Positions 30,001-36,000 of a stretch of 40,547 nt of DNA are shown here, piece by piece (the stretch's first letter is position 1; each line of letters begins with the position of its first letter). Made by a program: the position numbers. The DNA lies in the IMG/VR virus record IMGVR_UViG_2617270967_000014; one strand, 5' to 3'. The stretch comes from a virus. Lineage: Duplodnaviria > Heunggongvirae > Uroviricota > Caudoviricetes.

Positions 30001-33000
30001 CCCCTAGAATTTCGACTACCCGCTGGTGCAACACACCAAATTCCCCTTCGATTAACATGCAATCACCCATAACAATCAGCCTTTCCCCCTTGAAAATATC
30101 ACGCGGATACCACAAAAAATAAAATATTTTTGTTATCAGTCATTTATAACGTTTTTCATAAAATGATAAATATAGTTATTGCACAACCAGATAACTTAGG
30201 TTATCTTCAATTCAACAGCAGGACGCTGGAAGCCAAACGGAACAGATTGGCCGGCTCTTTAACATTGATGGACTCTCAACCTAACCGTTGAGACCAAAAT
30301 CTAAGTGGTTTTGGGGATGACGCGAATTTCAGTTGCAAGGCCGCGATCGAGAAGAAAAACACCTCGACGCGTCATACACCAAAGCCACTTAAAGGAGACC
30401 ATCATGGTAACCATAATCTGGAAAGAATCCAAAGGTACGGCAAAAAGCCGCTATAAAGCTCGCAGGGAAGAACTTATTGCAGAGCGGCGCAGTAGTGAAA
30501 GACTGACACGGAAGATTGCGCTAAAGATCTCTGGTTGCGTCGGAGCAGACAAAGCAGTATCACTCGGAAGCCTTCGCTGCAAGAAGGCAGAAGAAGTCGA
30601 GAGTAAACAGAACCGTATTTACTACCGCAAACCACGCAGTGAAATGGGTGTGACTTGCTCAGGCCGCCAGAAACAACGCGGAAAATCAATTCCGGCTTAT
30701 TACGATTGAGGTTAATGATGAAGTTCAAATTGAACGATGAAGTTAAATGGTCAAGCTCATCAAACGGTGTAACGAAGGTAAAAATCGGGTTTATCGTCGA
30801 GGTGATTCCTCCTGGTGTCAACGTAAAAAAATTCGAACTAGGCCGTCTGCTAGATGCACCTGGCCTTCCGAGGAAAGAAGAGAGCTATATAGTTTGTGTA
30901 GGTTCAAGACCCGGATCTCGTGCCAAGCCAAAATATTACTGGCCGCGAGTTAATAACCTGCGTCGATTACAACAAAAAACTTGCGCCCTTAAAACTTGAA
31001 ATTCTTCAGGCCGCCGGAAAAATGCAGCTTAAACTGGACGAATTCATCGACTGTATGGATGAAATGAATAAAGCAGTTCAGAAGCTTAAAGAGCTGACCG
31101 CCTGATATTAATAAATTGCAACTACCGGAGTTAACTATGAATGAAACAGAACTGAAGCACATTATCGCCCTGCTTCTGGAAGATGCCAGACAGGTTTATC
31201 GACTTAGCCCAAATTCCGCAACGCAGGAACGCATCCGGATAGCGGAAACAGCACTGAAACAGGACAATGGAAACGGCATATCCAAATTTAGCGCCGCCAG
31301 TGAAAATGAAGTAATAGAAATAAACAGCAATATCAGCGACAGTTGCGTCGCTTACAGCCACCAAATAATTCGTGTAAGTGCAAGAATAATGGAAGTGATG
31401 GCAAGTGAGCTTGAAAAGAACAACATCAAGCCCACTGATTGTTGTTTAAGAACCGTAATGAACGTTATTTATTACTCGATGTTCCGAAGTCGCTAACAGC
31501 GTCGAGTTTTTCATTAAAAAATGATTCAAATGCATCGTAAAATACGGCAATAGCACCGCCCTTATCTACCGCGGCAGGAACTGCCTTTTGAGGTATATCT
31601 TTCTCCGTAAATTGTGTGTTGTAAGTATCGACAGCCAGCCGCATCAGAAACATCACTTTTTCTTCTTGTGTCATAAATTCACTCTCCTTACGGGGTTTGT
31701 AGTTGAGGAGTTCTCCACGGGTGAGGTGGAGATCGTGCGCCGGACACGGGTGAGTTCCTGCACTCTCAGTTTACTGAACAGACATTACCCTGAAAGCCAG
31801 GGTACTACACGAAAGCGCGAGGCGAAGACTCTTTCCCATAGAAGGATTGTCGTTAGATTTCTTCGACCGTGCGCTTCCGGTTGTGAATAACAACATTGCT
31901 GTGTGTAACCCTTGGCGGATATCGGTTTGCCGATTGCTGATGTCCGCCCTTTTTAAAGTGAATTTTGTGATGCGGTGAATGCGGCTATGCGCACGCGGAA
32001 CAGTTAAACCGACAGGATGTCACGGAAAGTCATCGTCCCCTGACCCGGCGTTAGTTGTTAACTGGTTAACGTCACCTGGAGGCACCAGGCACCGCATCAA
32101 CAAAGTTCATTTGTGAAAATGGAGATAATTATGATTGCTCATCACTTCGGAACTGATGAAATACCACGTCAGTGCGTGACGCCTGGCGATTATGTTCTTC
32201 ATGAAGGTCGGACATATATCGCTTCAGCAAACAATATTGAAAAGAGAAAACTCTATATTCGTAACTTCACAACAAAAACATGCATTACCGACTGCATGAT
32301 TAAAGTTTTCATCGGGCGCGATGGCTTACCCGTAAAAGCAGCGTCGTTGTGACGAGTAATAAAATACCCCTTCCATATCTGTAACAGACAAGCCGAAATA
32401 AAACCGCATTAATTATCAATCACGGAAAAATCAAAATGAAAGAACTTGCGCAAAATGAAATATTTTCCAAAACCAGTCCTGATGCAATAAATGAACTCAA
32501 AGAAATTGCAGAACGCATCAGTAAAATATGCAAAGAATACAAAATCGACTTTGTATTTTCTTTTTCAGTGCTTACAGAAGTTGGAAATAACGAATATAAG
32601 GACAGTCGTTTTGTTTTATGTGGGTTAAATGGCAAAACACCAAGCCCATATATTCATGCTGCACGTGAAGTTGTCAGAAGCAACATTGGAGTACAACAAA
32701 TCCATACACTTGCACAGGCTCTTGAGTTTGCAAGAGAAAATTCTGAGTGCGACTGCCCTGAATGCCAGCACGAAAAGGGAAAAACAACTCACAAAACAGC
32801 AAACCAGGCAACCTTCCACTGAAATAAAAATCCGGCAGCGCAGGCTACCGGATTTCTCCCTGCGTCACCGTATTCGGAGAAATCAGACAAAGGGCCGCTA
32901 ATTCTAATCCAGCCAGAGGTTTAAATACAATGAGCGCTGATAAACAGACTTTTGCACTACACTGCGAAGCAAAAAACGATAAAGTCAGAAAACGCCTTGG

Positions 33001-36000
33001 CATCAAAGGCGGTTTTTTCTGGACCGAGGCCAGAAAACTTTCTGTCGCAGTTTCCCGCTGCATTGCAGCCATGGACGATGCAGGCTACGACGAGGATGAT
33101 TTCAAAAAACCCGTTCGCGTAAATTTCCCCGTCGTGAATGACCTTCCACCGGAAGGCGTGTTTGATACTGAATTCTGCAACCGCTATGAAAAAGGCGGTA
33201 ACGATGGCATCACCATGATGGCTATCCCCTTCGATGACAACATCAACGGTGAAGATGCCACAACTGCTGGCGATGACAACGATAACCTGGACGGAACTAT
33301 TCCGGATGATGTGGAGAAAAGCGAATCCCCGGACAGCGACGATGACTGTTCTGAGTGTGAAATTCCCGTCGCCACTCTGAGCCTTACTCATCGCTTCCTT
33401 CACCTCTTCTTATTCAGCAAAGATGAAGATGGAAAATACCGGCATCATGCCACACCAGAACAACGCAATAACGTGATCCGTATGGAGATGGACACAGAGG
33501 ACAGTTACCTTCAGAGCCTGCTTACTGCTGTGCGCGCCGCGCATCATGAACTGGATAAACTGACGAACTATCACCTTAGTCGCCTGGCTGAATCTGTAGG
33601 GAAAGCATTCCCCCACTCTGCAAATCATCGCATCAGCCCGGCTGAATTCGACAAGTTCATTTCCACCTGGATGAAAACTGACTACCTTGATCAGGGCCTG
33701 CTGACAAAAGAATGGCAGAACGGAAATTATGTTTCAGGCATTACCCGTACGCCTTCCGGTGCTAACGCTGGCGGCGGAAATATTACCGATCGTGGTGAAG
33801 GATTCAAACATGATAAGACATCACTCGCACGAGATGTAGCCACCGGCGTTCTGGCCCGTTCAATGGATGTGGATATTTATAACCTGCACCCAGCACACGC
33901 AAAACGCGTTGAAGAAATCGTGTCAGAGAATAAGCCGCCCTTTTCTGTTTTTCGCGACAAATTTATCGCCATGCCCGGTGGGCTGGATTATTCCCGCGCC
34001 ATTGTGGTGGCTTCCGTGAAAGAAGCACCAATCGGCATTGAGGCCATCCCGGCACGCGTGACTGAATATCTCAACAAAGTGTTGACCGAAACCGATCACG
34101 CTAACCCGGATCCGGAAATCGTGGAAATTGCCTGCGGTCGCTCATCAGCACCGATGCCGCAGCGCGGAACAGCAGAAGGAAAACATGGCGATGAAGAAAA
34201 GCAACAAACATCGGACACAATGGCTAATGAACAGGCAGCGCCTGAATCAGTGGAAGAAATTCCAGTTAAACATAATGAGGACACGCAATCACTGGAAAAT
34301 GTCTCATCTGTAGAAACGAAATACCAGGAACTGAGGGAGGAACTCAATAAAGCCAGGGAAAACATCCCCCCAAAAAATCCAGTCGATGCCGACAAATTAC
34401 TGGCTGCCTCGCGTGGAGAATTCGTTGAAGGCATCAGTAACCCTGCTGATCCGAAGTGGGTGAAGGGGATCCAGACTCGCGACACTGAGGACCAGAATCA
34501 GCCCAAAGTGGAACAAATTGCCCCAGAAGCGGGACAAAACAGCCCGGATACGCAACAAAACGGGCCAGAAGAGCAACAGCCAGGGCCAGTAATGCAACAG
34601 GAAGTGGAAAAGGTTTGCACCACATGCAGTCAGAACGGTGGCGGCCATTGCCCTGACTGTGGTCCAGTAATGGGAGATGAAACTTACGCTGAAACTTTTG
34701 GAGAAAATGACGCCGCTGATGGAGAAGACTCAGCACAAACTGAGGAGAAGATCATTCAGGAAAACTCTGTTGATGCCGCTCAGGAGGGCGAAACCGTTGT
34801 TCAGAACGAGCCAGGCAGTGATACGTCCGGCGATGACGCCAATTCTGAGCCAGTAACTCTCGACTGGAAAAGACAGCTCGTGATTGCCGCCGTCTATGGT
34901 TTGTGCGCCAACCCCGCATGTATAGCCACAGCGCCAGCAATCCCTGATATCGCCATCATGATTGCCAACAGGCTTGAAAATTTCGAAGGTGATAAATCAT
35001 GAATGCCTGGCTTATCCCCGATCGCATTGAAGAGCAGTCATGGGCACGACACTACCAGCAAATTGCCCGTGAAGAAACTGAAGCTGAGCTGGCAGACGAC
35101 CTGGAAAAAGGTCTGCCCCAACACCTGTTTGAATCGCTATGCATCGATAATCTGCAACGTCACGGGGCCAGCAAAAAAGCTATTTCCCGTGCATTTGATG
35201 ACGATGTCGATTTTCAGGAACGCATGGCAGAACACATCCGCTACATGGCTGAAACCATCGCCCGTCACCAAATTAATATTGATTCAGAGGTATAAAACGG
35301 ATGAGTACAGCACTCGCAACGCTGGCAGGGAAGCTGGCTGAACGTGTCGGCATGGATTCTGTCGACCCACAGGAACTAATCACCACTCTTCGCCAGACGG
35401 CATTTAAAGGTGATGCCAGCGATGCGCAATTTATCGCATTGTTGATCGTCGCCAACCAGTACGGCCTTAATCCCTGGACGAAAGAAATTTACGCCTTCCC
35501 TGACAAGCAGAACGGCATCGTTCCGGTGGTTGGCGTTGATGGCTGGTCCCGCATTATCAATGAAAACCAGCAGTTTGATGGCATGGACTTTGAGCAGGAC
35601 AATGAGTCCTGTACATGCCGGATTTACCGCAAAGATCGCAATCACCCGATCTGCGTTACCGAGTGGATGGATGAATGTCGCCGCGCACCATTCAAAACCC
35701 GCGAAGGCAGAGAAATCACCGGACCGTGGCAGTCGCATCCCAAACGGATGTTACGGCACAAAGCCATGATTCAGTGTGCTCGCCTGGCCTTCGGATTTGC
35801 TGGCATCTATGACAAGGATGAAGCCGAGCGTATTGTCGAAAATACTGCATATACTACAGAACGTCAGCCGGAACGCGACATCACCCCGGTTAACGATGAA
35901 ACCATGCAGGAGATTAACACTCTGCTGATCGCCCTGGATAAAACATGGGATGACGACTTATTGCCGCTCTGTTCCCAGATATTTCGCCGCGACATTCGAG

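Follow-up and report, generated by a model that had tools for sequence, protein, structure and literature searches.

The stretch of DNA analysed here, referred to below as the window, is the 40,547-nucleotide virus record IMGVR_UViG_2617270967_000014 of IMG/VR (Caudoviricetes), and the subject of this account is a gene of its early-left operon that occupies positions 32930-35002 on the plus strand and encodes a protein of 690 residues. In the list of open reading frames (ORFs) of the window, this frame begins with ATG, 10 nt upstream of which a Shine-Dalgarno-like AGAGG can be read from the sequence (32915-32919, plus strand), and it ends with a TGA (35000-35002) overlapping the ATG of gam (34999-35001) as ATGA. 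According to our own arithmetic, a frame of 690 codons would stay open by chance with a probability of about (61/64)^690, roughly 1e-14. The product contains 126 Asp and Glu residues versus 67 Lys and Arg residues, resulting in a net charge of -59 and an isoelectric point (pI) of 4.56. Furthermore, it carries a Cys4 motif (C563, C566, C574, C577), and its highest-hydropathy segment of 19 residues spans positions 650-668, with a Kyte-Doolittle value of 1.75. The original prediction, which had been made from the sequence alone, described the ORF, its very acidic product, the Cys4 motif, the hydrophobic C-terminus and the ATGA junction with gam, and all of these were confirmed when measured again.

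Profile searches place the protein in the family of RecE, or exonuclease VIII. Pfam PF06630 (Exonuc_VIII) matches residues 55-197 with an E-value of 1.8e-12 (48 bits, compared with a cut-off of 25), and PHROG 607 aligns residues 1-687 with positions 1-617 of its 883 profile positions (E 2e-260). The NCBIfam exodeoxyribonuclease VIII equivalog NF007259 is matched over positions 1-598 of 877 with 740 bits, which is below its cut-off of 1269. Two proteins were aligned for comparison, namely RecE of the Rac prophage (866 residues) and a RecE-like protein of E. coli strain 6817 (1049 residues), to which the 690-residue protein is 53% and 86% identical, respectively. Residues 1 to ~640 are colinear with RecE residues 1 to ~600, comprising head, core, a helix motif at residues 461-520, the Cys4 motif and an acidic linker, and a central block (residues ~250-415) is near-identical to Rac RecE. 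The earlier statement that the protein fits no known family is therefore superseded, since PF06630, PHROG 607 and NF007259 show it to be clearly homologous to the first ~600 residues of RecE/exonuclease VIII. Homology to a characterised family is thus evident, but it extends only to the uncharacterised part of that family.

Past the acidic linker, RecE enters its PD-(D/E)XK nuclease domain, whereas the 690-residue protein has a tail of 45-50 residues instead. In the same scan in which Rac RecE matched PF12684 (PDDEXK) with an E-value of 4e-28, the 690-residue protein gave no match to this family at E <= 10. Moreover, a sequence search of PDB chains with the protein returned no match and hence none to the solved RecE nuclease domain. 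In one lineage of the gene, P0117, a RecE-type linker ending in CSDETGE is followed directly by the tail, in the very position in which the nuclease of Rac RecE begins, which places the swap at a domain boundary. Judged from these comparisons, it is well supported, and close to certain, that the product of the gene is the N-terminal platform of the RecE family with the nuclease domain exchanged for a conserved tail; the assignment as a nuclease-less platform-plus-tail gene draws on PHROG 607, the RecE alignment and the substitution rates given below. Because the catalytic domain is missing, the protein is predicted to lack 5'-3' exonuclease activity on double-stranded DNA and thus not to be an exonuclease. 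For the same reason, the nuclease names given to such proteins in GenBank and RefSeq ('exodeoxyribonuclease VIII', 'RecE family exodeoxyribonuclease', 'exonuclease VII') are unjustified, and hundreds of entries named 'exodeoxyribonuclease VIII' or 'exonuclease VII' would accordingly not be nucleases. In NC_029120.1 (75/02 Stx) and NC_025434.1 (POCJ13), the annotation 'exonuclease VII' follows the label of PHROG 607, while GenBank and PGAP use 'exodeoxyribonuclease VIII'.

Along the plus strand, the gene resolves into alternating constrained parts and linkers. The RecE-type N-terminal head (residues 1-99; 32930-33226), which is also found on fusion proteins with a DEDD exonuclease, is followed by a first acidic low-complexity linker (residues 100-145; 33227-33364) with a net charge of -8 to -10 per 30 residues, which obtains low confidence in the full-length AlphaFold2 (AF2) model. 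The subsequent conserved all-alpha domain (residues ~146-410; 33365-34159) is the most constrained part throughout the family and bears the motifs RTxSGAxAGGGNxTDR, DYSRA and DHAxPD. A second acidic linker (residues 415-460; 34172-34309), which carries a net charge of -7 over residues 421-450 and shows a ratio of nonsynonymous to synonymous substitution rates (dN/dS) of 0.46-1.3, separates this domain from a conserved helix-plus-motif segment (residues 461-520; 34310-34489) that is kept in Rac RecE as well as in the DEDD fusion of strain CFT073. Next comes a linker rich in Gln, Pro and Glu (residues 521-560; 34490-34609), with indels between lineages and dN/dS mostly of 0.3-0.75, and then a zinc-ribbon-like Cys4 element, CxxC-x7-CxxC followed by VMGDxTYxETF (residues 561-592; 34610-34705), the four cysteines of which are invariant in RecE, the strain 6817 protein and the CFT073 protein. 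The third acidic linker (residues 593-642; 34706-34855) is highly divergent among lineages and constitutes the point at which C-terminal modules are swapped, and the C-terminal tail (residues 643-690; 34856-34999) is a predicted two-helix mini-domain. The negative charge is concentrated in residues 91-150, 421-450 and 571-630, segments of low model confidence with dN/dS of 0.5-1.3, while the constrained parts are close to neutral.

Upstream of the gene and in the same operon, the plus strand carries a KilR-type kil (FtsZ inhibitor) at 32113-32352 (PHROG 294 E 1e-37; NCBIfam NF008465 E 6e-46) and an ORF for 128 residues at 32436-32822, a member of PHROG 2016 (function unknown; E 2e-78), which occupies the racC slot, yet showed no similarity to RacC on comparison. 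The product of this small ORF bears the motif CDCPECQHEKG. Downstream, likewise on the plus strand, lie gam in a short form of 98 residues (34999-35295; Pfam Gam E 4.8e-65), bet, encoding the RecT-family annealase Red beta (35301-36086; Pfam RecT E 3e-33), and exo, encoding the lambda exonuclease with its YqaJ domain (36083-36763; Pfam YqaJ E 2e-29). DNA resembling that of lambda starts only at ~35020, about 21 nt into gam, and the first ~7 gam codons are not lambda-like; hence, the 5' end of gam belongs to the same block of DNA as the tail. Rac RecE, the partner of which is RecT, shares with the 690-residue protein the head (PF06630), the all-alpha core, the helix motif, the Cys4 element and the position after kilR, but it possesses the PF12684 nuclease, lacks the tail of 45 residues and is followed directly by recT, as is the case in strain 6817, where the window has gam-bet-exo. 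It is well supported that the gene is the last one of a Rac-like left block (kilR - orf128 - recE') joined to a lambda-type gam-bet-exo, and equally so that it is co-transcribed with these genes and translationally coupled to gam. The original prediction regarded the ORF as a replacement of lambda kil and cIII; with kilR retained upstream at 32113-32352, the local order is instead Rac-like (kilR ... recE').

This arrangement is not confined to the window. At all nine loci read that carry the gene in this nuclease-less form (hereafter the short form), the order is kilR - small ORF - short form - gam - bet - exo, while the loci differ in their immunity regions and attachment sites. The small ORF is of the 128-130-residue type in 8 of 9 lineages (L001, L005-L008, L009-L014), and in the remaining one (L017) the slot is taken by an ORF for 107 residues. 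Four distinct sequenced lambdoid or Shiga toxin (Stx) phages harbour the gene, namely the inducible phages PhiR5_2, phiSTEC1589-Stx1c, 75/02 Stx and POCJ13. Among 5426 complete E. coli genomes, 98 contain the 690-residue type of gene in full length, and its first 289 nt match 'exonuclease' genes among more than 1000 matching E. coli genomes. The frame is intact in >110 database clusters, and of the 120 clusters closest to the gene, 113 have the tail, the exceptions being partial sequences or full-length RecE forms.

Selection on the gene was assessed by pairwise Nei-Gojobori comparison of eight short-form lineages, comprising the window, the phages PhiR5_2, phiSTEC1589-Stx1c and 75/02 Stx, and four prophage types. 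Their proteins are 77-99% identical, and all frames are intact at 682-700 residues. For the whole gene, dN/dS amounts to 0.22-0.27, with lower values in the all-alpha core (residues 251-415; 0.10-0.19), the mid motif (residues 461-520; 0.06-0.15) and the tail (residues 643-690; 0.08-0.24, with dS up to 1.6), and mostly higher ones, 0.3-1.3, in the linkers (residues 416-460, 521-560 and 593-642). The gene is under purifying selection and is a real, functional gene. Between the window and strain 6817, dS is at most 0.05 at residues 151-460, reaches 0.5 in the head and is saturated past residue 560; this strongly mosaic pattern implies that short and full-length alleles keep recombining.

These values bear directly on the notion that the gene is a non-functional leftover, i.e. 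a recE cut when a lambda gam-bet-exo block took the place of its 3' end and of recT, with a frame that persists only because the event was recent. The junction of Rac-like and lambda-like DNA at the 3' end of the gene would fit such an origin, as would the many truncated or insertion sequence (IS)-interrupted recE-like genes in the databases, for instance L004 and the ydfE gene of K-12. However, a dN/dS of ~0.25 overall and ~0.1 in core and tail, at a dS of up to 0.6-1.6 between lineages, is at odds with a recent event, and so is a frame that remains intact at 680-700 residues in >110 clusters. Moreover, the tail is a conserved domain that recurs in proteins of other genera at only 25-35% identity, and inducible phages that form plaques are among the carriers of the gene. 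The leftover explanation is therefore close to refuted.

An exhaustive search with phmmer, covering 1.84 billion representative proteins, yielded only 208 clusters, and this low number indicates a narrow family that is essentially one of enterobacterial prophages. Among 67 diverse members, Pfam recognised Exonuc_VIII in 44, PDDEXK in 16, an Rv2179c-like 3'-5' exonuclease in 13, and RecT and RNase_T in three each. To tabulate the architectures, 87 family representatives of at least 400 residues were subjected to local profile searches, the Rac nuclease domain being detected by phmmer. The platform is joined to the tail in 23 of these 87 representatives, to a PDDEXK nuclease in 22, to a DEDD exonuclease in 14 and to RecT in two, whereas it stands by itself in 25. 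No protein among the 87 carries two C-terminal modules, and a nuclease is never found in a tail form. With 23 tail as opposed to 22 PDDEXK representatives, the tail form is as diverse as canonical RecE, and the exchange of nuclease, DEDD, RecT and tail modules on one and the same platform marks the platform as the constant, selected unit. Direct fusions of a RecE-type platform to RecT are exemplified by P0124 (703 residues, with RecT at 516-703) and P0220.

Two groups of relatives deserve closer comparison. The 'exonuclease' of the CFT073/O157 type (813 residues) aligns with the 690-residue protein from residue 1 and shares 47% identity over residues 1-592, from the head through the Cys4 ribbon, but it ends in a C-terminal Rv2179c-like/DnaQ-like DEDD 3'-5' exonuclease and has no gam-bet-exo downstream. 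Proteins of the YdfE type, on the other hand, share the core motifs and the tail (BLASTP E 7e-26 for the 690-residue protein versus P0210), are acidic as well and occupy the same operon slot, after dicB/ydfD or kil and before xis/int, whereas they differ in possessing another head, lacking the Cys4 ribbon and standing alone without gam, bet and exo. In precomputed annotation, the distant tail forms are labelled PF27430 (YdfE_N) plus PF27432 (YdfE_C), and the close homologues of the 690-residue protein PF06630 alone. The ydfE gene of K-12 (L022 5079-5999, in the Qin prophage) is a pseudogene, the IS2-truncated head of a platform-plus-tail protein of ~620 residues, and matches residues 6-211 of P0210 with an E-value of 8e-12. 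A direct comparison of the 690-residue protein with K-12 YdfE revealed no similarity, the head of the former being of the RecE type. Proteins composed of head, core and tail are encoded in eight species-representative genomes, including Buttiauxella, Lelliottia, Citrobacter and Cedecea.

Structure prediction for residues 140-430 with an alignment of 75 sequences yielded an AF2 model of high confidence (mean predicted local distance difference test, pLDDT, 91.3; predicted template modelling score, pTM, 0.83), in which the core forms a single all-alpha domain of ~13 helices and a small hairpin bearing the Gly-rich RTxSGAxAGGGNxTDR loop. Foldseek, the use of which had been proposed along with the original prediction, retrieved no structural relative of this domain from PDB (best E 1.4) or BFVD (best E 0.79). 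The core is accordingly modelled, with confidence, as a novel fold that has no solved relative. Where at least 80% of the family agree on a residue, that residue is almost always hydrophobic, which renders a binding or structural domain likelier than an enzyme. An enzymatic core was considered and is not supported, given these mostly hydrophobic conserved positions and the lack of a match to a Fic, HD or other fold.

The tail follows the consensus LTYxQQLTIAALQGLCANPAxxxxxDDIPxMAxxLA, in which A, A, G, N and P are invariant according to the profile alignment, and it is modelled, with low confidence, as two short helices. A search of PDB with the tail profile gave only chance spidroin-like matches (E >= 0.08). 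The DNA around the tail (34820-35060) matched nothing except gam in blastn and tblastx comparisons with Rac recET, strain 6817 recE-recT and the lambda pL region, and a tblastn search of 50,697 phage records with the tail recovered six short-form records only. The hydrophobic character of this segment raises the question of whether it might tether the acidic protein to the inner membrane, thereby serving exclusion, lysis control or DNA entry. A hydropathy of 1.75 for residues 650-668 is indeed borderline for a membrane helix, and the early-left neighbours kil, dicB and ydfD have the envelope or cell division as their targets. In the family as a whole, however, the 19-residue maxima of the tail lie between 0.34 and 1.75 (median near 1.0), mostly below the range of membrane helices. 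Moreover, the conserved positions of the tail include Q, Q, N, P and D/D, and two short helices are predicted rather than a single spanning one, so that a membrane anchor appears very improbable.

With respect to function, we favour the interpretation that the platform has no catalytic part in the phage recombination module but serves it as a scaffold or adaptor, to which we would assign a probability of roughly one half. We infer this role, its link to recombination and the contribution of the tail by analogy, because sister proteins join the platform covalently to a 5'-3' nuclease, a 3'-5' nuclease or an annealase. According to this scheme, the platform would serve transactions of phage DNA ends and recombination and would carry its enzyme covalently in the other forms (5'-3' PDDEXK, 3'-5' DEDD, RecT), while the tail form would do without an attached enzyme. 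The nuclease domain of RecE, which has been solved as a toroid, is a tetramer according to a review from 2023 (PMC11611040). Since this domain is tetrameric, the tail that stands in its place may oligomerise the platform; alternatively, it may bring in a partner in trans. The same review refers to the N-terminus of RecE as 'of unknown function' and, citing Fu et al. 2012, as dispensable for ordinary recombination but boosting linear-linear recombination. In the phage of the window, the 690-residue protein would act alongside Gam, Bet and Exo, and it possibly endows the Red system with efficient linear-linear recombination, as the N-terminus does for full-length RecE.

Several observations weigh against this proposal. 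The phage already possesses a complete Red system, and an additional recombination factor is not obviously required. Moreover, no gene for gam, bet, exo, recT or a PDDEXK protein was present within 6 kb of the tail forms at loci L018-L021 and in the eight species-representative genomes; these solitary forms imply that Red partners are not needed and that the function may be unrelated to recombination. In addition, the all-alpha domain has no structural relative in the databases searched from which a function could be transferred, and the full-length AF2 model (690 residues, 20 close homologues) reached a pLDDT of 33, with the tail modelled without confidence at pLDDT < 40. A narrower idea, the tail as a dedicated dock for lambda Exo or Bet, is weakened by the tail forms that occur elsewhere without Red genes.

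Related to the scaffold proposal is the idea of a 'split RecE', in which the RecE/YdfE platform is an autonomous hub and the tail recruits an enzyme in trans; this version we regard as rather doubtful. If it were true, the recruited enzyme could come from the host, as an exonuclease or a protein of recombination, or it could be lambda Exo or Bet where these are present, and the tail form would supply a recombination or DNA-end function to prophages devoid of a Rec module. It would likewise confer the linear-linear ability of full-length RecE on lambda Red, and the tail would represent a new mini-domain for protein recruitment, with free-standing cyanobacterial proteins of 65 residues as possible relatives.

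Another conceivable function is host takeover or anti-defence, as suggested at the outset on account of the acidity and the position of the gene: the platform would bind an immune sensor or a nuclease of the host so as to neutralise or redirect it, the acidic linkers could serve as mimics or decoys of nucleic acid, and the tail form would constitute a 'pure inhibitor'. The placement in the early-left operon with translational coupling to the gene of the RecBCD inhibitor Gam is in line with this notion, although the very presence of Gam speaks against a redundant RecBCD inhibitor. Likewise, acidity is kept in all tail-bearing relatives (pI 4.4-5.2) in spite of unconserved linker sequences, but in known DNA mimics the acidic residues are presented by a rigid folded surface, whereas those of the 690-residue protein appear to lie mainly in disordered, fast-evolving linkers next to constrained domains that are nearly neutral. 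Tail forms that stand alone in prophages without a Rec module point to a function independent of recombinases, and the novel fold contains nothing that contradicts a binding or inhibitory role. Fusions of the platform to exonucleases and RecT, on the contrary, read more naturally as a means of targeting DNA-processing enzymes. Furthermore, no match to a known anti-restriction, anti-defence or DNA-mimic protein was obtained in Pfam, PHROG, PADLOC or Foldseek searches, the PADLOC defence scan being negative throughout, and a search of the literature on YdfE function, or on RecE in connection with anti-defence, retrieved nothing relevant. Lambda Gam, T7 Ocr and ArdA resemble the protein in their acidic composition and early expression, and Gam also in being adjacent, but they share neither sequence nor fold similarity with it. 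Overall, the suggestion of a DNA mimic or anti-defence factor found no positive evidence, the acidity residing mainly in linkers under relaxed selection, and it seems unlikely.

Nuclease-less relatives of RecE are already on record. In a single sentence, a survey of the Rec modules of lambdoid elements (Genome Res 2025; PMC12315714) mentions 'RecE-2' proteins, 'distantly related' to RecE, which have no nuclease domain and the roles of which it states to be unknown, and it also notes DnaQ-like nucleases in Rec modules. Going by this description, the 690-residue protein belongs to the same kind, as it is related to RecE, has no nuclease domain and is encoded in the early-left/Rec region of a lambdoid element; what the survey says of 'RecE-2' includes no tail, no module swapping and no link to YdfE. 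We found no previous description of the conserved tail, of a constant platform on which C-terminal modules replace one another and never co-occur, of the link to YdfE, of the confidently predicted novel core fold or of the invariable association with Red in phages of E. coli and Shigella. The fragment 'miniRecE E121-T222' of another report (NAR 2026), potential evidence of an activity independent of the nuclease, could not be mapped and was left unused, since Rac RecE has P at position 121 and L at position 222 and the numbering of simple truncations does not agree with the name either.

The role of the ~600-residue N-terminus of RecE has been a long-standing question since recE was sequenced, and the 690-residue gene makes it directly testable. 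It constitutes a natural experiment, in which this N-terminus is maintained by selection without its nuclease and next to a different set of recombinases. Full-length RecE/RecT is the tool of choice for linear-linear 'direct cloning', owing to the N-terminus. Added to a Red plasmid, the gene could also provide a better recombineering reagent, and PhiR5_2, one of the phages harbouring it, grows on K-12 and infects MG1655.

Some further observations concern variants of the gene and its tail. In lineage P0117 (L011 8033-8055), the short form extends 23 nt into gam and ends in ...VTDDEYMPNF; P0134, P0245 and P0253 exhibit the same type of gam-overlapping end, variants of which read ...DDEHMPDF and ...SDERLPDF. 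The C-terminal tip of the single-stranded DNA-binding protein (SSB) of E. coli is DDDIPF. By analogy, the acidic-hydrophobic-Pro-x-Phe end of the P0117 type resembles the SSB tip and could bind proteins that recognise the SSB tail. In a prophage of Serratia quinivorans (L025 6001-6240), an ORF for 79 residues comprises little beyond the tail and occupies the same operon slot, after a gene of the domain of unknown function DUF1482 and before xis/int; this ORF represents either the remnant of a deletion or a tail protein in its own right. The profile search that retrieved it also found free-standing proteins of 65-76 residues with the tail motif (FRQQLIIAAVQGLCANP...) in cyanobacterial metagenome-assembled genomes (L023 1534-1731; L036-L038). 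There, the flanking genes code for an LprI-domain protein and a DUF1176 protein and the context is not that of a phage, and their resemblance to the tail reflects either true homology or convergence.

The region to the right of exo shows module mosaicism. In the window, homologues of lambda orf60a, orf63 and orf61 follow 3' of exo (36754-37268, plus strand) with 94-97% amino acid identity, and E. coli FORC_069 carries an identical 690-residue gene together with the Red genes, after which int follows almost directly. Between positions 29500 and 37500 of the window, 24 terminator-like hairpins were counted, compared with 9.6 +/- 3.2 expected from shuffled sequences, among them a hairpin readable on both strands at 32993-33011, within the 5' end of the 690-residue ORF.

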